In this document: one piece after another, positions 5,793 through 16,714 of the stretch | How the letters are laid out: the number at the start of each line of letters is the position of its first letter | Numbering within the stretch: the stretch's first letter is position 1 | DNA from: an uncultured Acidobacteriota bacterium | GTDB taxonomy: Bacteria > Acidobacteriota > Polarisedimenticolia > J045 | Length of the DNA: 32,307 bases | Direction of reading: 5' to 3' | Assembly (NCBI GenBank): GCA_964476985.1 | Contig: CAYZDB010000002.1 | Span: 1-32,307 of the forward strand | Notes under the pieces: model-generated | The model's database searches: none | What the model was told of the DNA's origin: nothing | Seen by the model: only the letters and a program-made list of their open reading frames with translations | Made by a program: the position numbers and the translations under genes

Positions 5793-6357
5793 GCCGACCG
5801 GGGCGGCGCGGCCTGGCGGTGCTCGGCTGCCGGCCACGGGAAGGCGACCGAGGCAGCAGTCTGCGCTCCTGGTGGGATCAGGCCCATCGCCGGCGCGGCA
5901 CACCACGCGCGGGATGCACTCGGTACGCTGCTTCGGGGGTCGATGGTCCGGCGAATGTCGCAGACCCATTGAGTGCGGGAAAGGCTTGTCAAAGTGCGAC
6001 TCACTGGTCGCCGATCTGTTGCCGCGGACTGCCCTGCTGGCGCCGTCCTGTAAGTGTGACAACGTGTGAATCCTGCGAACTCGTCACGACGCTCCCCTTG
6101 CCTTTGCGATCCGGTCAGCGTCCAATCGTGACGAAACAAGGGGGCCGCGCACGACGGGACCGGCTGGCCGGCTCCGGTGAGAGGGTGTAGTGCTCACGGC
6201 GGAATCACCTCGTTGGTGGCCCTCGCGAGCATCCGCCAGGGGCTCCGCGTATCGCGATGAACCGAACGTTGGTCGGTCCGTCGGTCCGGAAGCGGCTCCG
6301 ACCCTTGCGGCGCCCGCCCACCGCGCGTTGCGGCCGGCCCAGTGCGACTTGGGCACT

Positions 6358-6389
6358 GTCCGAGTCAGCGCGGAGTCGGGCGCTCGGAC
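6358..6389 (+). promoter_or_regulatory. Hairpin in the rhs 5' leader, 11 nt upstream of the SD
   Basis: GTCCGAG (6358-6364) pairs with CTCGGAC (6383-6389), leaving an 18-nt loop. Function is unknown. Confidence 0.25.
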
Positions 6390-6410
6390 TGCAGAAGTCT
6401 AGGAGGGGAG

Positions 6411-6503
6411 ATGAAGAACGACCACAATCGACGGCGCATCGAACGCGGCCACGCGTTCGGCCTGCTGCTGTTCCTCATGATCCTGCCCGTCTGCGCGTTC
6501 GCG
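6411..6503 (+). other. Predicted Sec signal peptide of the Rhs protein (AFA/VA cleavage); not a canonical lipobox
   Basis: A positively charged n-region (RRRIER) is followed by the hydrophobic core FGLLLFLMILPV and then CAFA-VAQ. LPVC does not fit the L-[AS]-[GA]-C lipobox. Confidence 0.6.
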
Positions 6504-9500
6504 GTCGCGCAGGAGTCACCGCCCCCTCCCGCGGCGCCGCCGGGGGGTGGAGAGGACCCTCCTGGCGGCGGCGGTACCGGTGGCGTGTCCTCCATCACGG
6601 ATCTCACCGTCTACGATCACCTCAGCCTCGTTGCGCGAGCGCCGGGAATCCCCGAGGGATCGATCTTCGCAGGATTCGAGAACTCCGAGTCGGTCCAGGC
6701 GTTCAGCGGGAACCTCCTCGTCACGCACCCGAGCAGCCCCTCGTTTCCACTCGACGGAGGCGGCAGCTTCAGCCTTTCGCGCAGCTACAACAGCTCGCGG
6801 ACCCTGGAGATCGCGAACAGGGGCGCCGACGATGTCTACAAGCGATTCGCGCACGGCCGAAGCTGGGTCGGATACGGTTGGACGATGCATCTGGGGCGGG
6901 TCTTCAAGCGCGCAAAGATGCCGGACCGCAAGGAGCAAGACCACCTGAATGAGCTCTACTGTTATCACGACCGGGAGTTCGTCTTCGAGGATGGGGCGGG
7001 TACGCAAACGGTGTTTAACGAGAAGGAGCCGGACCCGGTGCGGTCTGCCGTTCAAGAACGCCCGATTCTCAAGGTTCGGTTCTTTCGGAAGCCAGGACAG
7101 GAATGCGAGTTCGGAAGTCGCCGGCCGCTCTGGTGCGATACCCCCAACCGCTCGTCGCTGCCCGAATGCGACCACTTCGACAATGACTGCGAGACGACGA
7201 CGGACGGCACGGCCCACTATGAGGTCACGCTGGAAGATGGCTCGATCCTTCGGCTGGAGAAGCGGGTCGACGAAGTTACGAACGACCTGGGCTTCATCAA
7301 GAACGCCGACCGCAGCGGCTGGTACACCACGCGCATCACGTTCCTCTCCGGCGCGGCGCTTCGAGTGGCGTATCACGACAGCACGGCGTTTCCCGAAGCC
7401 ATCTACAAGGTGCAGTCGGAACGTGATCAGACAGTCACGATCCAAACGACTCTGTGCGCGTCCGACGCCCATTGCTGCGCACCCGGCGCAGCCTGCAGCG
7501 CCGGCTCGGGCCTTACGGGCCTCTTGAAGACCGTCACGGCAACGGGACCAGGCGGCCAGACGGTCACCTACGAATACTCATATGAAGCCATGTCTCTCAA
7601 CGATGTCGGCGGACCGACGACTGTTCCCGTGCTGCGGCAGGTCAAGCTACCGGTGGTCGGAGGACAGAGCGCCGGGTCGATCCAGTACACCTACCGACCC
7701 AGCTATCAGCCGGAGGGCGCCGGGCCGGGCGAGCCGGGGACGGGTCCGCTCCTCGAGCGCCTGATCTATCCGCTGAATGGCGAGGCGAAGTACGAATACG
7801 GCGCGTGGTACTGCGGTCCCAAGAAGTCCGGCGCACCGTCGGAAACCTACGAGTGCTATCAGCCCGGGTCGCGCCGGTGCTTTGGAGTGACCGGTCGCAC
7901 CCTCTTCCCCGCCGGCAGCGGTGGCACCGAACCACCGGCTCGCGCCGATTGGCGCTGGGACCGGGACATCTCCTACACGGGGCTCTGCCCGGCGAGCAGC
8001 GGTAACTCATGTCAACCCGCCTTCGCAGAGAACAACCGATTCGTGATGCGCGGTCCTGACGGACGGACGACAATCAGCGAGTTCGAGTCACCCGTTGCAT
8101 GCGGTTTGGGAATCAACAAACTCGTGGGACGCATCAAGGCGGAGGAGTCCTATGACGGCGATGGCACGGCAGTGGCCACCCGCCTGCGTCGTGTCACCCA
8201 CGCCTACATGTATCCGCTGGAGCAGGCCGTCGAGACGGAGTTCTACGACGGACCCTCGGCCTGCGACGATGGGGTGGCAGCCAGTCCCGCACGGATGCGC
8301 ACCGAGCGCTTCGAGACGAGCGAGTGGGGCGAGTGGAACCTGACGGTCGTGAGCGGCGACTACCTGCCGGCAGAGGTCAAGCGCCGGTCGTACGTCGCGC
8401 ACGACGATCCGAAGACCATGCCCCCGTCCCGGCTCGAGAAGCATGTCGTGGGCCGGTTCGGGCGGGCCTATGTGGAAGAAGGCCGTTTCCAAGATCCTGG
8501 ACGCTACGAAGTGATGTACTGGCACGAGGGAGATCTCGGCTACGGCGGTGAATACAAGGGCCGACTGCTGCAGGTGGCGGCCGTCGCGTCCTATCAGACC
8601 GTCGGAACGACCATCGACACGACGGCCAATCCTCCGGCCGTGCAGACACCGGAGCCCCCGAGCACTCCGGAATCGCCCCCGAACCTGCGTTCAGTGCTCA
8701 GTTACGACGCCTCGAAGGGCAATCTGGCCCAAGTCGTGTTTTCCGGAGGAGACTCGAACGCGACGTACACCGTCGACTACACCTGGGACCAGGCGATGGC
8801 CAAGACGATGAAGCTGACGGCCTTGACCTACAACAGCCGCGAGATCGTCCCCGATCGAGGAGCGGTCTCGGCAGCGATCGATCCGAACGGCCTCCGCACC
8901 GATTTCGGCTGGGACGCCCTGGGCCGGATCAAGAGCCTCACCCCGCCCGGACCCGAGTACGCGACGCGAGTGGCCTATCCGTCGTTGCTCGAGACCCGCG
9001 TCATCCGTTCGCCAGGCGCGGAAACCGCGCCCACGACCGATCCGGAGCAGGTGTACTCCGACCAGCGTTACGACGGTCTCGGCCGGACAATCGAGCGACG
9101 TAAGACGGTGCAGGGCTGGACGGCGCTGCAGGTCGTCCGGTATGACGCTCTCGGCCGCGAGATCTTCGTCTCCGAGTGGCTGACCCAGTCCGAATTCGAC
9201 ACGGCACCGAAGATCGTGTGGCAAGACGCCATGGATCCGGATGGAACGGGCCCACGAAGTTGGAGCCACAAGGTCGTCGACATCCCGACGAAGGACGGGC
9301 GCCCGTGGGGCACCGTGACCTACTACGGCGTGCCGTCGGCGACGGCACCCGACAACCCGCTTCGCGCCATCCCCGACGGCCTCGGCCGGGTCCGTCGCGT
9401 CGTTCAGGCCGACGGCTCGATCGTCGACACCGAGTACTGCGGCCCGCACGAGACGGTGACCGTGCACGGGGTGGACCGCAACGGCGATGGCGTTGCAGCG

Positions 9501-12500
9501 GAGACGTCCATCACGAAGTACTGGAAGGATGGGCTCGGCCGGCTGGTACTGGTCGACACCGACGTCCGGGCCGGAGGCGCGGCCGGGGACGGGGCCGACG
9601 CGGTCTACCGCTTCGACCCACGCGGCAAGGTCCGTGCCGTCCACCTAGTGTCGCAGCTTCCGGCGGACGCTTTCAACCAGTGGCGAAATCCGGACTGGAC
9701 TCCGGCGAATCCCCAGACGCGGACGTTCGAATACGACGCGCTCGGCCGGTTGCGGCGGGCCACGAACCCGGAGAAGGGTCTGGAGGAGTTCCATGCCTAC
9801 GACGTCTGGGGCAACCTCCTGGCCTGGACGGACGAGCTGGGACGCCAGCGCGGGTACCACTTCCGCAACACGTTCGACGGCGCAGGCCGACTGACGAAGA
9901 CGGAGCGCTGGCGGGCGGCCTACGGGACCGCGGGGACGCCAAGCGACGTGGAGCGTCTCGGCAGCAACGGGACCTTCGAGGGCACATGGCCCGGGGCCTG
10001 GGTCGAAGGGACGATCGACGGCTCGAACAACTTCAAGCCAGCGACGACCTCGTGGGAGGCCGTAGCCTACGGAGCAACGTCCTGCTTCAAGGCGCCCCCC
10101 GTCGGGGGCGGAATGCGCGGCCTGCACCTCGGCGGCACGGCGTGCACGTACGACGCCGCCGACCGCGGGCGGGAAGTGGCCCGAATCGCGGTCACGGGCG
10201 TGACCCGAGACGACCTGCTCAGTTTCAAGTACTGGCGGCAGGTGCGGGAGCAGAGCGGCGGCTCGCGCGACGCCCTCGAGGTCTGGGTGACGCGGCAGTC
10301 GCCGGACGGCGCTTCGATCCTGCCGCGGCGCGTGGTGTTCAGGATGTCGGAATCGCACGCATCCTACGCGAAGTGGATCCAGAGCCCCGGCGTCGCGCCG
10401 GGGGACTTCTACAGTCCCGCGGACTGGCCGGAAGGGACGACGCGCGATCTCTTCGTCTACTTCGTGTTCGAGAAGGGGGACGACGTCAGCTCCGGTCTCG
10501 GGCTGGGGGTGCTGATCGACGACGTCACGCTCGGCCGCAAGGGGGTGGAGACACTGGAACAGACCACCTACGACACCGACGTCTGCAGCGGGAGCGAGGG
10601 GGGCGACGCCTGCCTCGAGGGCGCCAGCACGGTCAATGCGTACAAGGACAAACCGGCCAAGGTGGCGTCGTACCAAGATGGCCGGAAGGTGCTGGAGCGG
10701 CGCTTCGTGTACCGCGGCCTGAACGGCCGCCTCTCGGGCGTGCGTACGCTGTTCGACTGGCGCGGGATGGCGCGGGACAATCATCCCGAGGACTGGACGA
10801 GCGTGGTCTGGAACGCGACCTGGAACAGCCACGGCCTGCCCGCCGACCTGGTGGCGCCTTATGCGGCGGCGGCCGGCAAGCGACGCTACGCGCAGCTCTA
10901 CTACGGCACGCTGCTGCGCCGGATCACGAGCGGCACGACGCCGCTGCTGGTCGCGGAGGACGGGCTGGACGGCGTCTACTACGACGCCGCCGGCGAGCCG
11001 ACCGAGTTGCGCTTCGCCAACGGTGCGGGGACGGCGATCGCGCGGGACGCCCAGCACCGGCCGCGGTCGTACGCGGTCTGGGGCTCGCCGACCACCGAGA
11101 GGCCCTTCTGGGCGAGCGGGAACTACACCTTCGACGGCGCGGGGAACATCCTCGCGATCGGGACGCAGCGCTTCGGCTACGACGGCGCCTCGCGGCTGAC
11201 GCACGCCGAGCTGCTGCCGCAGGCGCAATCCCCGACGACGCTGACCTTCGACGTCGTGAACTGGACCTACGATCTCTACGGGAACATGACCGGGCAGACG
11301 CTCGTCGGCAGCTCGGCGGCCACCCCCCCGCCCCTGACGTTCCAGCACACCTACGGTGCCGCCGGCCCCGGCAACCACAACCAGGTCACGACGTCCGGCT
11401 TCGCCTACGACGGCAACGGCAACACCCGTCGCTTCACCGGCCAACTCGGCCCCGCGGACGCCGTCGGCGCACTCTGGGACTCCCAGAACCGCCTGACGGC
11501 GTTCGTCCAGGGCGACCCCTGGGCCGGCAGCGCACCCGGCGAGACGTACGCCTACGACGCCGACGGCTACCGCTTCCTGCGGCTCTCGCTCGACAACACG
11601 GGCAAGGCGCTGCTGTCGGTGCGCGATGGCGAGGGCCGGACGCTGTCGGAGTTCGTGGACGAGCCGAGCGGCGGGCTGAAGCTGGTGCGGGACTTCGTCT
11701 ACGGGGTCGGCCAGCTGCTGGTCGAGCGCCAGGTGACCAGCGCGCCGCCGCAGATGCTGCTGGGCAGCCCGCTGGTCTCCGGCGGGAGCTATCACCTGAC
11801 GGTGACCGACGGCAGCGCGGCGCCGAGCTACGAGCTGGACATCCGCACCGCGTCCGGCTTCCAGAACCGCCTGACCGGCCTGCAGCGCGACGCGGCCCAG
11901 CAGCTCCACGTGCCGGAGAGCGCCTTGTCCCCCGGCGAGACGAACGTCCTGCGGCTGCGGGCCGAGGGCGAGCCGGGGACCGGCTACTCGGTGCCGGTCT
12001 CGCTGCTGTACGATCCGAGCGTGACGCCCTCCTCCCCGAACCAGATCCGCGCGCTGGGGGTCTCGCGCAACGGGACCGACCTGGTGCTGCGCTGGGCGCT
12101 CTTGACCGAGAACGGCAAGCAGACCAGGGTGAGCTTCCGGCGGGCCGACACCGGGGCGACCTACGTGCTGACGCCGCAAGCGCTGGCGTCGTCGATCAAG
12201 TCGTACACGCTCTCGTCGCAGGCTCTGGCCTCGCCGTGCGGGGACTTCCTGCTGAGCCAGGTGCTGCAGTCCAACGAGACCGGCCCGACCCCGCCGCTCC
12301 GGAACCCGAGCAGCCAGAGCGGGACGCAGGGGACGGAGATCGATCCCTGCGACGACCCGCCGCCCGACCCAGCTCCGGGCCCGCGCTTCACCAACGCCTA
12401 CCACCACCGCGATCACCTGGGCACGCTGCGCAACGTAACCGGCGACGGGGGCTACCTGGCCGCGGCCTACGACTGGTACCCGTACGGGACGCGGATGAGA

Positions 12501-13250
12501 ACGGGCCTCGCCGGCTCCGCCTCGGACAGCCGGCGGGTGTTCACGGGGCACGAGCGGGATCTGGCGACGGGGCTGGATTACATGATGGCGAGGTACTACG
12601 GACCAAGCCTCGCCCGCTTCCTGAGCACCGATCCCGGAGACGACACCTACCTCGACGCCCCGCAGAGCTGGAGCGAGTATTCCTACGTTCGCGATCGTCC
12701 CATCGGCGCGAACGACCCGACGGGCAGATTCACGGATTGGGGACTGACCCGCGAGTTCCGCGTGAGCCCGCCCGCGGTGGCGGCGACAGGTGGCACCCCC
12801 CAGGCCGCCTCTCAGACGATCGAGCAGATTGCCAAGTCGACGTCGTCGGTGGCGAATACGGTCGGTTGCGGAGCACTACTTGGGGCGGTCGTCGCGGCAA
12901 TCGTTCCGGGGGGACAAGCAGCGGTTCCTCCCCTCCTGTCAGTCGCTGGCACGATGGGGACGATCTCGCTCGGCAGTGATGTCGCCGCGGCCGCAGCGGT
13001 CCCGTCAACCGATAACGTCAACACCGTCATTGCCGATGTGGTGACGACAGCAGCGGTGGCGGGTGCGCTCAGGGGCGCGGAAGCACAGATGAGCCCCGGC
13101 TCCCGGGTGGCTGTCGAGACAGCTGCGATTCCTGCTGCGACGGCAGTGACGAGCATCGCGGAATCTGTGGAGGATGCCGTCGACGACCGAGGGAAGACCG
13201 ACCCTGCTGCTCCCCAGCGGGAACCGGCAGACAAGGAACAGAAGAAGTAG
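6411..13250 (+). CDS. Rhs/YD-repeat polymorphic toxin (2279 aa) with N-terminal Sec-type signal peptide, RHS core and a novel C-terminal toxin tip
   Basis: ATG 6411 directly follows AGGAGGGGAG (6401-6410). Signal-like N-terminus: MKNDHNRRRIERGHAFGLLLFLMILPVCAFA/VAQ. Shell-start motif: FSLSRSYNS...GYGWTMHLG. There are at least ten YD repeats, including FGWDALGR ~8904, YDGLGR ~9067, YDALGR ~9139, YEYDALGRL ~9727, FDGAGRL ~9880, YTFDGAGN ~11125, FGYDGASRL ~11175, FAYDGNGN ~11400 and YAYDADGY ~11551. RHS-associated core: YHHRDHLGTLR..WYPYGTR..FTGHERDLATGLDYMMARYY..YSYVRDRPIGANDPTGRF, ending at 12731. Confidence 0.95.
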   Translation: MKNDHNRRRIERGHAFGLLLFLMILPVCAFAVAQESPPPPAAPPGGGEDPPGGGGTGGVSSITDLTVYDHLSLVARAPGIPEGSIFAGFENSESVQAFSGNLLVTHPSSPSFPLDGGGSFSLSRSYNSSRTLEIANRGADDVYKRFAHGRSWVGYGWTMHLGRVFKRAKMPDRKEQDHLNELYCYHDREFVFEDGAGTQTVFNEKEPDPVRSAVQERPILKVRFFRKPGQECEFGSRRPLWCDTPNRSSLPECDHFDNDCETTTDGTAHYEVTLEDGSILRLEKRVDEVTNDLGFIKNADRSGWYTTRITFLSGAALRVAYHDSTAFPEAIYKVQSERDQTVTIQTTLCASDAHCCAPGAACSAGSGLTGLLKTVTATGPGGQTVTYEYSYEAMSLNDVGGPTTVPVLRQVKLPVVGGQSAGSIQYTYRPSYQPEGAGPGEPGTGPLLERLIYPLNGEAKYEYGAWYCGPKKSGAPSETYECYQPGSRRCFGVTGRTLFPAGSGGTEPPARADWRWDRDISYTGLCPASSGNSCQPAFAENNRFVMRGPDGRTTISEFESPVACGLGINKLVGRIKAEESYDGDGTAVATRLRRVTHAYMYPLEQAVETEFYDGPSACDDGVAASPARMRTERFETSEWGEWNLTVVSGDYLPAEVKRRSYVAHDDPKTMPPSRLEKHVVGRFGRAYVEEGRFQDPGRYEVMYWHEGDLGYGGEYKGRLLQVAAVASYQTVGTTIDTTANPPAVQTPEPPSTPESPPNLRSVLSYDASKGNLAQVVFSGGDSNATYTVDYTWDQAMAKTMKLTALTYNSREIVPDRGAVSAAIDPNGLRTDFGWDALGRIKSLTPPGPEYATRVAYPSLLETRVIRSPGAETAPTTDPEQVYSDQRYDGLGRTIERRKTVQGWTALQVVRYDALGREIFVSEWLTQSEFDTAPKIVWQDAMDPDGTGPRSWSHKVVDIPTKDGRPWGTVTYYGVPSATAPDNPLRAIPDGLGRVRRVVQADGSIVDTEYCGPHETVTVHGVDRNGDGVAAETSITKYWKDGLGRLVLVDTDVRAGGAAGDGADAVYRFDPRGKVRAVHLVSQLPADAFNQWRNPDWTPANPQTRTFEYDALGRLRRATNPEKGLEEFHAYDVWGNLLAWTDELGRQRGYHFRNTFDGAGRLTKTERWRAAYGTAGTPSDVERLGSNGTFEGTWPGAWVEGTIDGSNNFKPATTSWEAVAYGATSCFKAPPVGGGMRGLHLGGTACTYDAADRGREVARIAVTGVTRDDLLSFKYWRQVREQSGGSRDALEVWVTRQSPDGASILPRRVVFRMSESHASYAKWIQSPGVAPGDFYSPADWPEGTTRDLFVYFVFEKGDDVSSGLGLGVLIDDVTLGRKGVETLEQTTYDTDVCSGSEGGDACLEGASTVNAYKDKPAKVASYQDGRKVLERRFVYRGLNGRLSGVRTLFDWRGMARDNHPEDWTSVVWNATWNSHGLPADLVAPYAAAAGKRRYAQLYYGTLLRRITSGTTPLLVAEDGLDGVYYDAAGEPTELRFANGAGTAIARDAQHRPRSYAVWGSPTTERPFWASGNYTFDGAGNILAIGTQRFGYDGASRLTHAELLPQAQSPTTLTFDVVNWTYDLYGNMTGQTLVGSSAATPPPLTFQHTYGAAGPGNHNQVTTSGFAYDGNGNTRRFTGQLGPADAVGALWDSQNRLTAFVQGDPWAGSAPGETYAYDADGYRFLRLSLDNTGKALLSVRDGEGRTLSEFVDEPSGGLKLVRDFVYGVGQLLVERQVTSAPPQMLLGSPLVSGGSYHLTVTDGSAAPSYELDIRTASGFQNRLTGLQRDAAQQLHVPESALSPGETNVLRLRAEGEPGTGYSVPVSLLYDPSVTPSSPNQIRALGVSRNGTDLVLRWALLTENGKQTRVSFRRADTGATYVLTPQALASSIKSYTLSSQALASPCGDFLLSQVLQSNETGPTPPLRNPSSQSGTQGTEIDPCDDPPPDPAPGPRFTNAYHHRDHLGTLRNVTGDGGYLAAAYDWYPYGTRMRTGLAGSASDSRRVFTGHERDLATGLDYMMARYYGPSLARFLSTDPGDDTYLDAPQSWSEYSYVRDRPIGANDPTGRFTDWGLTREFRVSPPAVAATGGTPQAASQTIEQIAKSTSSVANTVGCGALLGAVVAAIVPGGQAAVPPLLSVAGTMGTISLGSDVAAAAAVPSTDNVNTVIADVVTTAAVAGALRGAEAQMSPGSRVAVETAAIPAATAVTSIAESVEDAVDDRGKTDPAAPQREPADKEQKK
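11549..12599 (+). repeat. Direct repeat copy A (inside main rhs), partner of 13656-14631
   Basis: Line-by-line alignment: offset 2107 before a 75-nt indel and 2032 after it. 11813-12499 is identical to 13845-14531 at all 687 positions. Confidence 0.95.
12732..13247 (+). other. Rhs C-terminal toxin tip 1 (172 aa), Ala/Val/Gly-rich, unassignable; candidate membrane-active toxin
   Basis: This is the sequence after DPTGRF: TDWGLTREF..VGCGALLGAVVAAIVPGGQAAVPPLLSVAGTMGTISLG..VIADVVTTAAVAGAL..VAVETAAIPAATAVTSIA..KEQKK. By my count it has 37 Ala and about 40% Ala+Val+Gly, with no His, no Tyr and one Cys. I see no recognisable nuclease, deaminase or ART motif. Confidence 0.6.
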
Positions 13251-13277
13251 CGTGATCATCGGCCGGAGTGCGACCAG

Positions 13278-13475
13278 ATGAGAGCTTGGATCCAGGTTCT
13301 TCTGCTCATTGCGCTTGGTGCTGCGGCCTTGTGCCTCGCCGCCCGCATTCGGGTACCTCCTGATGAGCCCGGGTCAGTGCTGTACCCGACCTATCGGTAC
13401 CTTAGGCTGATGTTGCTCGTCTCCGGGGGGGGTGCTCTCTTAGTGGCGGTGCGACTTGTGGCATTCCCTCCGTGA
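13278..13475 (+). CDS. 65-aa two-TM membrane protein; candidate cognate immunity protein for toxin tip 1
   Basis: ATG 13278 lies 9 nt after GGAG (13265-13268) and 27 nt after the rhs stop. Two hydrophobic helices: WIQVLLLIALGAAALCLAA and LRLMLLVSGGGALLVAVRLVAF. Position immediately 3' of a polymorphic toxin tip is the classical immunity location. Confidence 0.6.
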   Translation: MRAWIQVLLLIALGAAALCLAARIRVPPDEPGSVLYPTYRYLRLMLLVSGGGALLVAVRLVAFPP

Positions 13476-13518
13476 AGGCGACCAAAGAAGTTAGACGGCG
13501 TCAGGACGGTCAGCGATC

Positions 13519-15330
13519 TTGGCTTCGCTCGGTGACGCCGGCCATGTGCACCTCCGGCTTGCGTCCGGGCTACAGCGAACAGGCCGCATGTTCGATTTGA
13601 TTTCCGCCGGGCTGCGAATCCCACCGGCTTTGGCAAGGGGGCACCGTGCACAACCCGCCTACGACGCCGACGGCTACCGCTTCCTGCGGCTTTCGCTCGA
13701 CAAAGCCGGCAAGGCGCTGCTGTCGGTGCGCGACTGGGAGGGCCGGAGGCTGTCGGAGTTCGTGGACGAGCCCATCGGCGGGCTGAAGCTGGTGCAGGAC
13801 TTCGTCTGCGGGGTCGGCCAGCAGCTGATCGAGCGCCAGGTGACCAGCGCGGCGCCGAGCTACGAGCTGGACATCCGCACCGCGTCCGGCTTCCAGAACC
13901 GCCTGACCGGCCTGCAGCGCGACGCGGCCCAGCAGCTCCACGTGCCGGAGAGCGCCTTGTCCCCCGGCGAGACGAACGTCCTGCGGCTGCGGGCCGAGGG
14001 CGAGCCGGGGACCGGCTACTCGGTGCCGGTCTCGCTGCTGTACGATCCGAGCGTGACGCCCTCCTCCCCGAACCAGATCCGCGCGCTGGGGGTCTCGCGC
14101 AACGGGACCGACCTGGTGCTGCGCTGGGCGCTCTTGACCGAGAACGGCAAGCAGACCAGGGTGAGCTTCCGGCGGGCCGACACCGGGGCGACCTACGTGC
14201 TGACGCCGCAAGCGCTGGCGTCGTCGATCAAGTCGTACACGCTCTCGTCGCAGGCTCTGGCCTCGCCGTGCGGGGACTTCCTGCTGAGCCAGGTGCTGCA
14301 GTCCAACGAGACCGGCCCGACCCCGCCGCTCCGGAACCCGAGCAGCCAGAGCGGGACGCAGGGGACGGAGATCGATCCCTGCGACGACCCGCCGCCCGAC
14401 CCAGCTCCGGGCCCGCGCTTCACCAACGCCTACCACCACCGCGATCACCTGGGCACGCTGCGCAACGTAACCGGCGACGGGGGCTACCTGGCCGCGGCCT
14501 ACGACTGGTACCCGTACGGGACGCGGATGAGGACGGGGGTCGCCGGCTCCGCGTTGGACAGCCGGAGGGTGTTCACGGGGCACGAGCGGGACCTGGCGAC
14601 GGGGCTGGATTACATGATGGCGAGGTACTACTCGTCACCGGGGGGGACGTTCCTGTCGGTGGATCCCGGGGAGGACACGGATCTCGATGATCCCCAATCC
14701 TGGAATGCCTACAGCTACGTTCGTCGCGACCCGCTCGGTGGGAACGATCCTGACGGCAGATTCGGGAATCTCCTGGTCGGCTTCGTCGTCGGGGCGGCTG
14801 TCGAGGCCGGGTCGCAAGTCGTGGCGGGGATGTCGGAAGGAAAGGGCCTCATCGATTCCGTAAAGGGCATCGAGGGGAACAAGGTCCTCCTCAGTGCTGC
14901 GGTCGGAGGGGTGACTTCGGGCGTGAGCGCAATCCGCGCGATTGGATTGGCCGGCCGGCTCGCCGTGGAGGCCGCTGGCAATGTCGCCGAGGGAGCTCTG
15001 CATGCCCAAGTTGATGATGCCTCCTACGGGTCTGCGGAGGTCGTCGACGACGCCATCGTCGGAGCTGTAGCAGGAGTAGTCGGAGAGGGCACCGAACGCC
15101 TGACGCACGCCGTCGCACAACAGACGGACGCGGCGAAAAGCCTCGCCCACGACGCGAAGCGCCTGGAGAACATCGCCGACAAGGGGCGCCCGCGGGCGGC
15201 CCAGGAGTTGCGCGCACAGCAAGCCAAGGAGAAGGCGGCAAGCTACGGCTCGAAGCTCGCATCGGTCACCGGCGCAGCGGCGAGCAACCTAACGAGCGAG
15301 GCTGCAGGGAACAAGAAGAAACAACCGTGA
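13519..15330 (+). CDS. Orphan Rhs C-terminal cassette (last YD repeat + Ig-like insert + RHS core + alternative toxin tip); no signal peptide or shell, start uncertain, possibly silent
   Basis: The track ORF starts at TTG 13519, with an in-frame ATG at 13588; neither has a convincing SD. From 13656 it is homologous to 11549 onward of the main rhs (AYDADGYRFLRLSLD...). It has the same core, YHHRDHLGTLR..FTGHERDLATGLDYMMARYY, then diverges: SSPGGTFLSVDPGEDTDLDDPQSWNAYSYVRRDPLGGNDPDGRF ends at 14763. Confidence 0.7.
   Translation: MASLGDAGHVHLRLASGLQRTGRMFDLISAGLRIPPALARGHRAQPAYDADGYRFLRLSLDKAGKALLSVRDWEGRRLSEFVDEPIGGLKLVQDFVCGVGQQLIERQVTSAAPSYELDIRTASGFQNRLTGLQRDAAQQLHVPESALSPGETNVLRLRAEGEPGTGYSVPVSLLYDPSVTPSSPNQIRALGVSRNGTDLVLRWALLTENGKQTRVSFRRADTGATYVLTPQALASSIKSYTLSSQALASPCGDFLLSQVLQSNETGPTPPLRNPSSQSGTQGTEIDPCDDPPPDPAPGPRFTNAYHHRDHLGTLRNVTGDGGYLAAAYDWYPYGTRMRTGVAGSALDSRRVFTGHERDLATGLDYMMARYYSSPGGTFLSVDPGEDTDLDDPQSWNAYSYVRRDPLGGNDPDGRFGNLLVGFVVGAAVEAGSQVVAGMSEGKGLIDSVKGIEGNKVLLSAAVGGVTSGVSAIRAIGLAGRLAVEAAGNVAEGALHAQVDDASYGSAEVVDDAIVGAVAGVVGEGTERLTHAVAQQTDAAKSLAHDAKRLENIADKGRPRAAQELRAQQAKEKAASYGSKLASVTGAAASNLTSEAAGNKKKQP
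13656..14631 (+). repeat. Direct repeat copy B (5' part of the orphan cassette)
   Basis: Same alignment as copy A. The identical antisense track ORFs 12161..12394 and 14193..14426 independently confirm the 2032-nt offset. Confidence 0.95.
14764..15327 (+). other. Orphan toxin tip 2 (188 aa), glycine-zipper-like hydrophobic N-part plus charged helical tail; candidate membrane-active toxin
   Basis: GNLLVGFVVGAAVEAGSQVVAG..LLSAAVGGVTSGVSAIRAIGLAG..AIVGAVAGVVGEG.., then AKSLAHDAKRLENIADKGRPRAAQELRAQQAKEKAASYG. Small-xxx-small spacing recurs. There is no recognisable enzymatic motif and no sequence similarity to tip 1. Confidence 0.55.
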
Positions 15331-15986
15331 GGCGGTCTCGCGAGGTAGAAGGGCAAGGAGGCGACTCCTCGCAAGCGCGGCCGTGGCCCTTGCGTTGGCT
15401 CGGCTCGCTGCTGTTGGTGAGTGTGGTCCATATCGCAACACCGGCCCTCCTCGCGGAGGCGGGCTCTGCGGAATACGCACGGAGTCGCGATCAGCTGTTC
15501 GTTGTGTGCTTCATCGCATTCCTCCTATTCATCGTTCTCGTCTCATACCTACGGGGGCGAAGACGCGAGTTCTCGCAAACGCGGCGGTGGGACCTGCGCT
15601 GGATCGGCCCACTGCTGCTGGCGGGTTTGGTTTACCTCGCGACAAGGGCGCATCTCGCGGAGGCGGGATCCGCGGATTACGCCCGACGTCACGGCCGGCT
15701 CTTCACAGTGTGTCTGCTCGCGTTTCTCCTATTCGTAGTCCGAGTCAGTACTCGCCCGGCCCCCTCGTTGATCAAGGCGGCTCGTAGCGCCGACCAGAAG
15801 TCGGAGTACATCCGCGGTGGGTGGATGTCGATCGACCTGGCCTTGCTCCTGTCTGCGGCCGCGGCAGTATTCGTGCTGGATTGGAGTGGCTGGCGCGACT
15901 ATCTCGTACAGATCGGCGTGGTCTCGGCGCTCATAATTGTTCGCATCGTTGTCAGTCTCGTCCAACGGGCGTTGGGAAAGAAGTGA
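15327..15986 (+). CDS. 219-aa, about 6-TM membrane protein with internal tandem duplication; candidate immunity protein for orphan tip 2
   Basis: GTG 15327 overlaps the orphan stop (GTGA). Hydrophobic helices: WLGSLLLVSVVHIATPALLA, LFVVCFIAFLLFIVLVSYL, WIGPLLLAGLVYLATRAHLA, LFTVCLLAFLLFVVRVS, IDLALLLSAAAAVFVLDW, IGVVSALIIVRIVVSLV. A sampled block is low in GC (15481-15540: 31/60). The start codon is uncertain. Confidence 0.65.
   Translation: MRRSREVEGQGGDSSQARPWPLRWLGSLLLVSVVHIATPALLAEAGSAEYARSRDQLFVVCFIAFLLFIVLVSYLRGRRREFSQTRRWDLRWIGPLLLAGLVYLATRAHLAEAGSADYARRHGRLFTVCLLAFLLFVVRVSTRPAPSLIKAARSADQKSEYIRGGWMSIDLALLLSAAAAVFVLDWSGWRDYLVQIGVVSALIIVRIVVSLVQRALGKK
15378..15785 (+). repeat. Tandem 204-nt (68-codon) duplication inside the candidate immunity gene
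   Basis: Unit 1: RPWPLRWLGSLLLVSVVHIATPALLAEAGSAEYARSRDQLFVVCFIAFLLFIVLVS. Unit 2: RRWDLRWIGPLLLAGLVYLATRAHLAEAGSADYARRHGRLFTVCLLAFLLFVVRVS. The Trp codons sit at 15384 and 15588. Similarity is visible at DNA level too (ctcgcggaggcgggctctgcggaatacgc vs ctcgcggaggcgggatccgcggattacgc). Confidence 0.85.
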
Positions 15987-16083
15987 CCGCACACGGCGTG
16001 GTTCGCACGAGGTTGCCGGCCAGGCAGAGTGCGGCGGGGCGAAGTGGCGTTGAAGGCCCCGCGGACGCCATCGGCGGGCCGGG

Positions 16084-16542
16084 TCAGGAGCGCTTGCGAC
16101 TTCGCTCCAGCGCCCGAACGTCGGCAAGATCCTGCGCGCGCGCAGTGGCCCGCTTGGCTGCGAGCAGGTCGTCGAGGCCGATGATCTCGACCGGGACGTC
16201 CGCCCACCGCGCCTGGAGACGCCGCTCCCAGGCCGCCGGGAAGTCGACTCCCGGGATCGTGCGGAAGATCTCGACCCGAACGGGTGCGGCGCCCATCCAC
16301 ACGATGTCATTCGGCCCGGCACTCTGGAGTTCTGCGAGTGCGGCAGCCGGCGCGCCGAAGGCCCGGAGTGCCGCGAGAACGCGGGAGAGATTCGACGGCT
16401 CCTCGCCGATCCAGAGGCCGAGGTCTTTCGTGAAGCGCGGGCGGCCGTGGAACGCGACGGCGTAGCCGCCCACGACGAGGTACTCAGCGTTCGCCGCGGC
16501 GAGTGCCGAAAAGAGATCTCTCAAGTCGGGGTGGAGGTCCAT
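16084..16542 (-). CDS. Nucleotidyltransferase-fold (MNT/AbiEii-like, DUF-type) protein, candidate toxin-antitoxin-like component
   Basis: MDLHPDLRDLFSALAAANAEYLVVGGYAVAFHGRPRFTKDLGLWI carries the hhGG-x(n)-D-x-[DE] NTase signature region, but reads D-L-G where relatives as I recall them read D-x-D. GC3 bias supports the frame. Confidence 0.75.
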   Translation of the reverse strand: MDLHPDLRDLFSALAAANAEYLVVGGYAVAFHGRPRFTKDLGLWIGEEPSNLSRVLAALRAFGAPAAALAELQSAGPNDIVWMGAAPVRVEIFRTIPGVDFPAAWERRLQARWADVPVEIIGLDDLLAAKRATARAQDLADVRALERSRKRS

Positions 16543-16714
16543 CGTTGCCCTCGATTGCCCACGCCTCTTCGACCAACTGCCACGCGGCGGCCAGCCGCAT
16601 CTCGGGTGGCGCGGCGAGCCAGAACGCGATCTCCGCGTCGAGAGCCTCGGCCCCGTGGCGGACGCGCCCCGCGGTCCAGCCCGGGCGCGTTGCAGGGTTC
16701 CGTTCGATCGTCAT
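16484..16714 (-). CDS. 76-aa small protein, upstream partner of the NTase-fold gene (antitoxin-like)
   Basis: ATG is at 16714. GC3 is high until the 59-nt overlap with the downstream gene. The tail ..AAWQLVEEAWAIEG..PRLERSLFGTRRGER resembles the C-terminal RL[EQ]R-type tail of small partner proteins found upstream of such NTase genes. That is recollection, not verified. Confidence 0.5.
   Translation of the reverse strand: MTIERNPATRPGWTAGRVRHGAEALDAEIAFWLAAPPEMRLAAAWQLVEEAWAIEGNDGPPPRLERSLFGTRRGER

Follow-up and report, generated by a model that had tools for sequence, protein, structure and literature searches.

A putative orphan toxin-immunity cassette related to Tse5 in an Rhs locus of an uncultured Acidobacteriota bacterium

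The rhs loci of enterobacteria (Salmonella, E. coli, Serratia) carry orphan rhs-CT/rhsI modules, 5'-truncated rhs fragments that share the 3' end of the core of the main gene. Each carries an alternative C-terminal toxin domain (CT, or tip) and the gene for its immunity protein, and homologous recombination can put this tip in place of the main one. To our knowledge, no Rhs pore-forming toxin other than Tse5 has been studied in depth, and Tse5 itself has been regarded as a lone Pseudomonas case without a family. Here, we analyze an orphan Rhs tip (tip 2) and the gene that follows it (the partner) in a stretch of 32,307 nucleotides from an uncultured Acidobacteriota bacterium. This stretch (the window) is one entire contig (CAYZDB010000002.1, C2) of a 3.25-Mb metagenome-assembled genome, which is 88% complete. 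The product of a neighboring o-succinylbenzoate-synthase gene shows 81% identity to a protein labelled "Acidobacteria bacterium" and 69–73% identity to proteins of Thermoanaerobaculia/Thermoanaerobaculales metagenome-assembled genomes, in line with a Thermoanaerobaculia-like host. The CT of Tse5 (residues 1169–1317 of PA2684) was shown by experiment to be a membrane-inserting, ion-selective pore-former that depolarizes cells, and Tsi5 is an inner-membrane immunity protein with two transmembrane (TM) segments (PMC9637101, PMC10684867). We consider it probable that tip 2 and its partner, the open reading frame (ORF) at 15327–15986, form a stored orphan toxin-immunity cassette, related to Tse5, of an Rhs polymorphic-toxin locus. 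The features discussed below are collected in Table 1.

Tip 2 and its relationship to Tse5-CT

Tip 2 starts immediately after an NDPDGRF cleavage-type motif (14743–14763), which forms the end of an orphan Rhs core fragment. The Rhs_assc_core model TIGR03696 matches residues 331–413 of this orphan (14509–14757) with 53–57 bits. Relatives of tip 2 were gathered with phmmer from 1.84 billion representative proteins (E≤1e-3). The search returned 64 protein clusters, 17 of them at E≤1e-10, and nearly all of the matches cover approximately residues 2–180 of tip 2 and lie at the C-terminus of the protein. Since so many clusters match at these levels over the full length, the domain is more than a chance resemblance. 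In all members, it begins 2–6 residues past the Rhs NNPxxxxDPxG motif. Three of the matches are full-length Rhs proteins (2068–2500 residues), and the remainder are mostly fragments or orphan modules. Tip 2 is, thus, a real domain of an Rhs-CT family that is not in the catalogues. It has no match in Pfam or NCBIfam, where no catalogued pore or ionophore domain, including the colicin type, was recovered, and a scan of 41 family members against the same databases gave no consistent match. In the host phylum, the family is present in 3 of 300 other genomes and in none of the four from the same taxonomic family. A search of genome contigs with a closer sub-alignment of the family yielded 40 pattern matches, none of which was confirmed.

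In a 41-sequence alignment of the family (A1), the conserved positions define an N-terminal hydrophobic helix (G6, G10, E/D14 and Q18) and, after a loop, a second segment (S44, G48 and G53). Further conserved motifs are "EGA", "DAxxG" and a C-terminal "AxRxxNIAxxGRPRxAQxxRA...YG". The last of these corresponds to NIAxxGRPRAAQ in tip 2 (15169–15204) and is conserved in alignment A3 as well as in A1. The tail of tip 2 is rich in Ala, Lys and Gln, and AlphaFold2 places helices there at residues 112–140 and 145–176, with low confidence (predicted local distance difference test score, pLDDT, 53–62). Some members (e.g. P0015, P0016, P0019, P0024, P0037 and P0043) carry a C-terminal extension (A1 columns ∼285–312) that ends in (A/S)D(N/K)TRV-x-(I/V) and is absent from tip 2.

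An initial annotation of this DNA, made from the sequence alone, had described an orphan Rhs tip that follows DPDGRF, has a Lys/Ala/Gln-rich helical tail, lacks a catalytic signature and shares no sequence with tip 1, the tip of the main Rhs protein upstream. Its coordinates and quoted peptides match the sequence exactly (GNLLVGFVVGAAVEAGSQVVAG, AAVGGVTSGVSAIRAIGLAG and IVGAVAGVVGEG all occur in tip 2), and the description agrees with the core match and motif directly upstream, with the two low-confidence helices, and with the empty Pfam and NCBIfam searches. Tip 1 was also considered as a possible relative of tip 2 or of Tse5 and was rejected, as no shared sequence is detectable.

The same annotation had likened tip 2 to Tse5 and suggested a profile comparison with Tse5-CT, which raises this likeness to remote homology. 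When the A1 profile was run against all PDB sequences, the top match was 8cp6_C, "Toxin protein Tse5", the 149-residue Tse5-CT (E = 0.0083), with the runner-up at E = 0.62. The matched Tse5 fragment scores 18.5 bits, compared to a maximum of 11.3 bits in 2000 shuffles. Ten Tse5-CT homologues from Pseudomonas spp., Phytopseudomonas, Trinickia and Chiayiivirga (98–34% identity), cut at the DPxGL motif, were assembled into a second alignment (A4). Comparison of A1 with A4 by hhalign gave a Prob of 96.3% and an E-value of 2e-9 over 55 columns, with residues 2–56 of tip 2 matched to residues 9–78 of Tse5-CT; the reversed A4 reached a Prob of 0.6%, and 60 column-shuffled versions reached at most 0.9%. 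The A1 hidden Markov model also scores 37.8 bits on the Tse5-like CT of Chiayiivirga and 30.3 bits on another Pseudomonas CT. As these profile matches far exceed the shuffled controls, "Tse5-like" denotes homology rather than mere resemblance, and the N-terminal module of tip 2 is, at the level of sequence profiles, homologous to that of Tse5-CT. The Ala/Arg/Lys-rich helices of tip 2 align weakly with the Tse5 C-terminus (11 bits). Like tip 2, Tse5-CT has no Pfam family according to the Pfam/NCBIfam scan.

Tip 2 had further been portrayed as a glycine-zipper-like domain with repeated small-xxx-small motifs. Gly, Ala and Ser make up 41% of its residues. The pattern [GAS]xxx[GAS]xxx[GAS] occurs 16 times, compared to 12.5±3.4 in composition-preserving shuffles, and GxxxG four times, compared to 3.1, while GxxxGxxxG does not occur in tip 2. 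A relaxed definition of the zipper, (G/A/S)xxxGxxxG or GxxxGxxx(G/S/T), usually repeated (PMC12744356), is matched once, by A45xxxG49xxxG53, where shuffles have a mean of 1.6 matches. A zipper-like motif at this site is kept in 28 of the 41 family members, and G6xxxG10 is nearly invariant across the family. The repetition of small-xxx-small motifs, therefore, does not rise above the shuffles, and what stands of the earlier description is a single relaxed site that is conserved. Tip 2 is a Gly/Ala-rich, amphipathic domain with one conserved zipper-like site and does not appear to be a zipper-repeat protein. The accompanying statement that glycine zippers are the basis of the pore activity of Tse5 could not be traced to the Tse5 papers (PMC9637101, PMC10684867), which mention neither glycine nor GxxxG; the early glycine-zipper proposal is credited to Tse4 (PMC11630599).

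The membrane partner and its counterparts

The GTG start codon of the partner gene overlaps the TGA stop codon of tip 2 (GTGA, 4 nt). The encoded protein has six hydrophobic segments, of which the window copy has five, and its homologues all six, above a Kyte-Doolittle threshold of 1.6, and AlphaFold2 builds six long helices (residues 22–44, 48–81, 93–112, 116–142, 166–184 and 189–217). Both results bear out the six-TM membrane protein that had been proposed as the partner of tip 2. A tandem duplication within the gene, with copies of 72% nucleotide identity, encodes one two-helix hairpin per copy; the two hairpins are 55% identical in amino acid sequence (z = 33 against shuffles). The third hairpin was tried as a third copy of the repeat and rejected (z = 1.4 and −0.7), and is unrelated. 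The partner has no meaningful match in a Pfam/NCBIfam scan and no homology to the immunity candidate of tip 1 in the window. An apparent W-IGP/AEAG...RR likeness to the partner in another family locus (L027) amounts to only 5–6 bits, which is inside the shuffle range, and was discarded.

Only three homologues of the partner were found among 5.8 billion clusters, with 74–78% identity. All three sit immediately behind the same tip and likewise overlap it by GTGA, and the presence of this overlap in four lineages, including the window, suggests coupled translation. The tip and the partner are both intact in L004, where a further orphan follows. The tip is frameshifted in L001 (at ∼9459) and 5'-truncated in L002, and both loci have kept an intact partner, a pattern to be expected of an immunity gene. 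Comparisons between the window, L004 and the L001/L002 lineage give ratios of nonsynonymous to synonymous substitution (dN/dS) of 0.22–0.34 for tip 2 and 0.29–0.43 for the partner, i.e. both are under purifying selection (0.2–0.4). By analogy, the partner most likely protects its owner, and we regard it as the candidate immunity protein. An insertion sequence (IS)-type integrase gene (rve) is located right after the partner in two sister loci (L001, 11495–12778, − strand; L002, 1488–2792, − strand).

A small polytopic membrane protein is encoded downstream of the tip in every intact locus of the tip-2 family that was examined (Table 1). All ten Tse5 loci are likewise followed by a gene for a hydrophobic membrane protein of 60–75 residues, which has two hydrophobic helices in nine of them; the downstream ORF of the Chiayiivirga Tse5 locus (L023) has one segment above the hydropathy threshold. 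In contrast, other kinds of tips in the same loci have soluble or secreted partners, such as Imm32 in L012 and, in L011, a 207-residue signal-peptide protein after an HExxH-type tip. That membrane partners occur here, and soluble or secreted ones beside other tips, is the chief independent reason to place the action of the family in the membrane.

The same observations bear on an alternative in which tip 2 has an unrecognized fold and works as a soluble toxin, either as an enzyme or on nucleic acids, and in which the membrane protein is not an immunity protein at all but, e.g., an export helper or part of a transporter. Enzymes are common among Rhs tips, no fold emerged from AlphaFold2 for tip 2, and the Arg-rich GRPRAAQ could bind nucleic acid. 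However, the invariant positions of tip 2 are Gly, Ser, Gln and Ala, with no conserved His/Cys/Asp/Glu catalytic set, and tip 2 has homology to a toxin that is a proven pore-former. The membrane partner recurs throughout the family, unlike the soluble partners of other tips, and its linkage to the tip is tight in each of four lineages. We, therefore, consider a soluble enzyme very improbable.

Table 1. Features of the Rhs locus in the window, and ORFs found downstream of the tip in other loci of the tip-2 family.
Locus	Feature	Position	Strand	Basis or description
Window	Main Rhs protein	6342–13250		2302 residues; Sec-type signal at the N-terminus; ends in tip 1
Window	Tip-1 partner			65-residue two-helix ORF after the main rhs gene
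Window	3' part of main rhs repeated in the orphan	11549–12599	+	Local alignment
Window	Orphan Rhs core fragment	13656–14763	+	TIGR03696 and repeat analysis
Window	Tip 2, C-terminal toxin domain with stop codon	14764–15330	+	188 residues (14764–15327); stop codon 15328–15330
Window	N-terminal Tse5-like module of tip 2	14767–14931	+	Tip residues 2–56; hhalign, conservation
Window	C-terminal helical hairpin of tip 2	15097–15291	+	Tip residues 112–176; AlphaFold2 helices, motif conservation
Window	Partner gene, candidate immunity protein	15327–15986	+	219-residue six-helix membrane protein
Window	Tandem duplication within the partner gene	15351–15746	+	Copies 15351–15542 and 15555–15746
L011	Downstream ORF			73 residues, 2 TM
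L012	Downstream ORF			143 residues, about 4 TM
L013	Downstream ORF			At least 96 residues (contig end), at least 3 TM
L027	Downstream ORF			171 residues, 3 TM

Mode of action, expression state and delivery

The orphan repeats the 3' part of the main rhs gene in two blocks, as defined by local alignment. In the distal block, 11813–12599 corresponds to 13845–14631 with 99.1% nucleotide identity, and in the proximal block, 11549–11737 corresponds to 13656–13844 with 92.6%. Between them, the orphan lacks 75 nt in frame at 13845 (25 residues, PQMLLGSPLVSGGSYHLTVTDGSAA), which the main gene has at 11738–11812. The deletion sits between short SA(P/A)P repeats, and the missing stretch is kept in the main gene and in the orphan of L001. 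The homology to the main gene stops ∼130 nt before the cleavage motif. Downstream of the main rhs gene and its immunity candidate, the locus, thus, has a 5'-truncated copy of the core with another tip and a separate gene following that tip, the features that define an Rhs orphan toxin-immunity module. The repeat is likely a substrate for recombination that would replace tip 1 with tip 2, each together with its partner. Such an event would delete ∼2 kb that contains the tip-1 pair, and the orphan is probably active only after it has taken place.

If tip 2 and its partner are such a cassette, their mode of action could be as follows. Recombination over the ∼1-kb repeat would join tip 2 to the full-length rhs gene. 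The tip would then be enclosed in the YD shell, cut between the Arg and the Phe of NDPDGRF by the aspartyl protease of the shell, and released at the cytoplasmic membrane of the target cell. Its hydrophobic, Gly-rich N-terminal module and the amphipathic helices would insert into this membrane, and the inserted tip would dissipate the membrane potential. In the inner membrane of the producer, the six-helix partner, apparently built from two copies of one two-helix hairpin and a third, separate hairpin, would block tip 2, as the two-helix Tsi5 blocks Tse5.

Several findings weigh against this interpretation. The homology to Tse5-CT is limited to residues 2–56, and the other two-thirds of tip 2 are family-specific. 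Only residues 3–21 reach a TM-like hydropathy (Kyte-Doolittle 1.78; family mean 1.3). AlphaFold2 gives no confident fold for tip 2 (pLDDT 37, 26-row alignment), and its model of the partner is also of low confidence (pLDDT 43.5, four-row alignment). The partner has no homology to Tsi5 or to the partners of other family members; its repeat units, compared with ten Tsi5 homologues, give an hhalign Prob of 1.8% and a Smith-Waterman z of 1.6. The N-terminal module also precedes an HNH nuclease and polar C-terminal parts elsewhere, in one case with a soluble partner. Relatives of tip 2 are decaying in L001, L002 and L026, the tip copy of the last being frameshifted, and a promoter scan revealed neither an evident promoter nor a start of the orphan's own. 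Finally, a search of the genome, at its completeness of 88%, revealed no TssC (VipB), VgrG or PAAR, only an Hcp-like ORF on contig C253, and the main Rhs protein has a Sec-type signal. The PAAR-like N-terminus and the VgrG partner that mark delivery by a type VI secretion system (T6SS) were, thus, not found in this incomplete assembly.

Some of these points are brought together in the proposal that the cassette is silent, i.e. that the orphan tip is unexpressed and drifting towards a pseudogene, and that the partner alone is used, as an orphan immunity protein against neighbors that deploy tip 2. The orphan has no N-terminal region, no upstream shell and no signal peptide of its own, and scans of 12900–16600 for promoters, terminators and Rfam families found nothing above background, leaving it without a promoter-like site. 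A weak terminator-like hairpin lies ahead of it, 25 residues of its shell part are deleted, and sister tips are broken (by frameshift in L001 and L026 and by truncation in L002), with the partner intact in L001 and L002. On the other hand, the tip ORF of the window is intact and evolves at the low dN/dS given above, the GTGA overlap in four lineages suggests coupled translation, and 787 nt at 99% identity to the main gene leave recombination possible. We rate silence as a serious possibility, slightly less probable than its opposite; it bears only on whether the cassette is expressed, and does not conflict with the identification of the contents as a Tse5-related cassette. The hairpin mentioned above (13576–13594, + strand), followed by ATTTGATTTC, is located between the tip-1 partner and the start of the orphan homology. 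The scanned region contains four terminator-like sites, compared to 1.6 expected.

A different alternative arises from the distribution of the N-terminal module. Several phmmer matches cover only the first 60–85 residues of tip 2. In P0061, the module is followed by an HNH endonuclease (PF01844, 41.5 bits), and in P0060, P0070 and the same-phylum locus L028 (691–2013) by different C-terminal parts of polar character, an unassigned domain in the case of L028. L029 is a further locus in which the module opens a tip that continues differently. The ORF after L028 has 188 residues and no TM segments, i.e. it encodes a soluble partner. The C-terminus of P0070 is Lys-rich, with a D...E-x-K pattern noted by eye only. 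Since the module precedes nuclease and polar domains, it need not be the toxic principle by itself. For the DNase effector Tde1 to be translocated into prey, its GxxxG region is required (PMC10240207). By analogy, these arrangements suggest that the N-terminal module inserts into the membrane or carries cargo across it, and that the toxicity neutralized by the membrane partner also depends on the family-specific C-terminal two-thirds.

In its strict form, this alternative holds that the module is an insertion or translocation device, that residues ∼57–188 are toxic through a membrane-associated target, e.g. a membrane protein that they bind or block, without forming a pore, and that the partner neutralizes this activity. 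The module ahead of other cargo, with the soluble partner of L028, the Tde1 precedent and the strong conservation of the Arg-rich motif in the C-terminal hairpin would all fit. However, the whole 149-residue Tse5-CT forms pores without a separate cargo domain, the C-terminal part of tip 2 is a low-complexity Ala/Lys/Gln helix that matches no enzyme or binding family, and the partner is membrane-embedded throughout the family. We consider this version quite unlikely. A joint reading, tentative and in our view somewhat doubtful, takes the ∼55–70-residue module found in Tse5-CT, the tip-2 family and the Rhs tips with HNH or polar domains as a portable membrane-insertion or translocation unit in the Rhs systems of several phyla. 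The cargo of Tse5 and tip 2 would then have shrunk to amphipathic helices, so that the translocator itself is now the weapon. The six-helix partner would correspond to Tsi5-type immunity units fused covalently into an oligomer, and immunity would be multimeric, capping the inserted module.

The initial annotation had suggested a lineage that diversifies membrane-targeting rather than nuclease tips. This is not supported: the same genome encodes a tip with an HEVGH motif, and the main tip of the sister locus L001 is different and lacks hydrophobic segments. The lineage is not specialized in membrane tips. The HEVGH tip belongs to a second Rhs 3' end on contig C244 (L007, 3–1433, + strand), where the full metallopeptidase-type motif reads HEVGHMVG, and is followed by a 183-residue ORF with one N-terminal hydrophobic segment.

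Three other ORFs of this genome were noted. An Hcp-family ORF (L024; C253, 488–1054, − strand; PF05638, 80.8 bits) with a signal-peptide-like segment of its own is located on a 2.5-kb contig and adjoins a polytopic membrane protein. In the window, right after the cassette on the opposite strand, an ORF resembling the DUF6036 nucleotidyltransferases (16087–16542, − strand) scores 22.8 bits, just below the Pfam cut-off. It is overlapped by a small 76-residue ORF upstream of it (16487–16714, − strand), and the two may be a toxin-antitoxin-like pair.

Relation to known systems

The N-terminal half of Tse5-CT belongs to a wider, uncatalogued set of Rhs tips from Acidobacteriota, Bacteroidota-like and Pseudomonadota sources, which includes Rhs proteins that are apparently exported by the Sec route and not fired by a T6SS. 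Its presence before nuclease domains offers a testable handle on how Rhs cargo reaches or crosses the inner membrane of the target. The duplicated hairpin of the partner amounts to a natural experiment on immunity that possibly acts as an oligomer. The general picture of polymorphic toxins is unchanged, and the practical value lies in the definition of the family and in constructs to test.

Compared to the orphan modules of enterobacteria, the tip-2 orphan is marked by a repeat of ∼1 kb with 93–99% identity and by its 75-nt deletion. The closest counterpart of the tip itself is Tse5/Tsi5 (PA2684/PA2683), whose C-terminal toxin is also cut from an Rhs shell at DPxG. Both toxins share a G-x3-G-A-x2-E-x-G-x-Q helix, a loop and an S-A-x-x-G segment, and neither has an enzymatic signature. 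Both are followed by a gene that specifies an integral membrane protein and has a start overlapping or abutting the stop of the toxin gene. The two differ in length (188 residues for tip 2, 149 for Tse5-CT), and tip 2, unlike Tse5-CT, has a family-specific middle part and a C-terminal hairpin with NIAxxGRPRAAQ. The partner of tip 2 has six helices with an internal duplication, whereas Tsi5 has two, and there is no similarity between them. Moreover, this copy of tip 2 is an orphan in an Acidobacteriota host whose Rhs protein has a Sec signal, unlike Tse5 of Pseudomonas aeruginosa.

Three further systems share features with tip 2. Tde1, a T6SS DNase of Agrobacterium tumefaciens (PMC10240207), has a short, Gly-rich hydrophobic region ahead of its cargo that permeabilizes or crosses the target inner membrane, and the tip-2 module likewise precedes an HNH nuclease in P0061. 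However, Tde1 is not an Rhs tip, and tip 2 has no separate cargo domain. The CdiA-CT ionophores of the E. coli EC93 type (PMC11630599), also polymorphic toxins, act in a contact-dependent manner and dissipate the membrane potential, as proposed for tip 2. Highly variable, specific, membrane-embedded immunity proteins are encoded immediately downstream of them. They differ in the CdiA/CdiB scaffold and in entry domains that exploit inner-membrane receptors, and no sequence match to tip 2 appeared in any search made. The zipper toxins of the type VII secretion system (TelE, EsxX and TspA; PMC12744356) have small depolarizing C-terminal domains and polytopic immunity proteins, six-TM ones included. 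They carry an extended glycine zipper and an LXG delivery domain, whereas tip 2 has a single relaxed match, and no homology was detected. Judging from its sequence, the cassette would represent a familiar kind of weapon, an Rhs membrane toxin related to Tse5 with a polytopic immunity protein; what is new is the uncatalogued family and the unusual host and secretion context.

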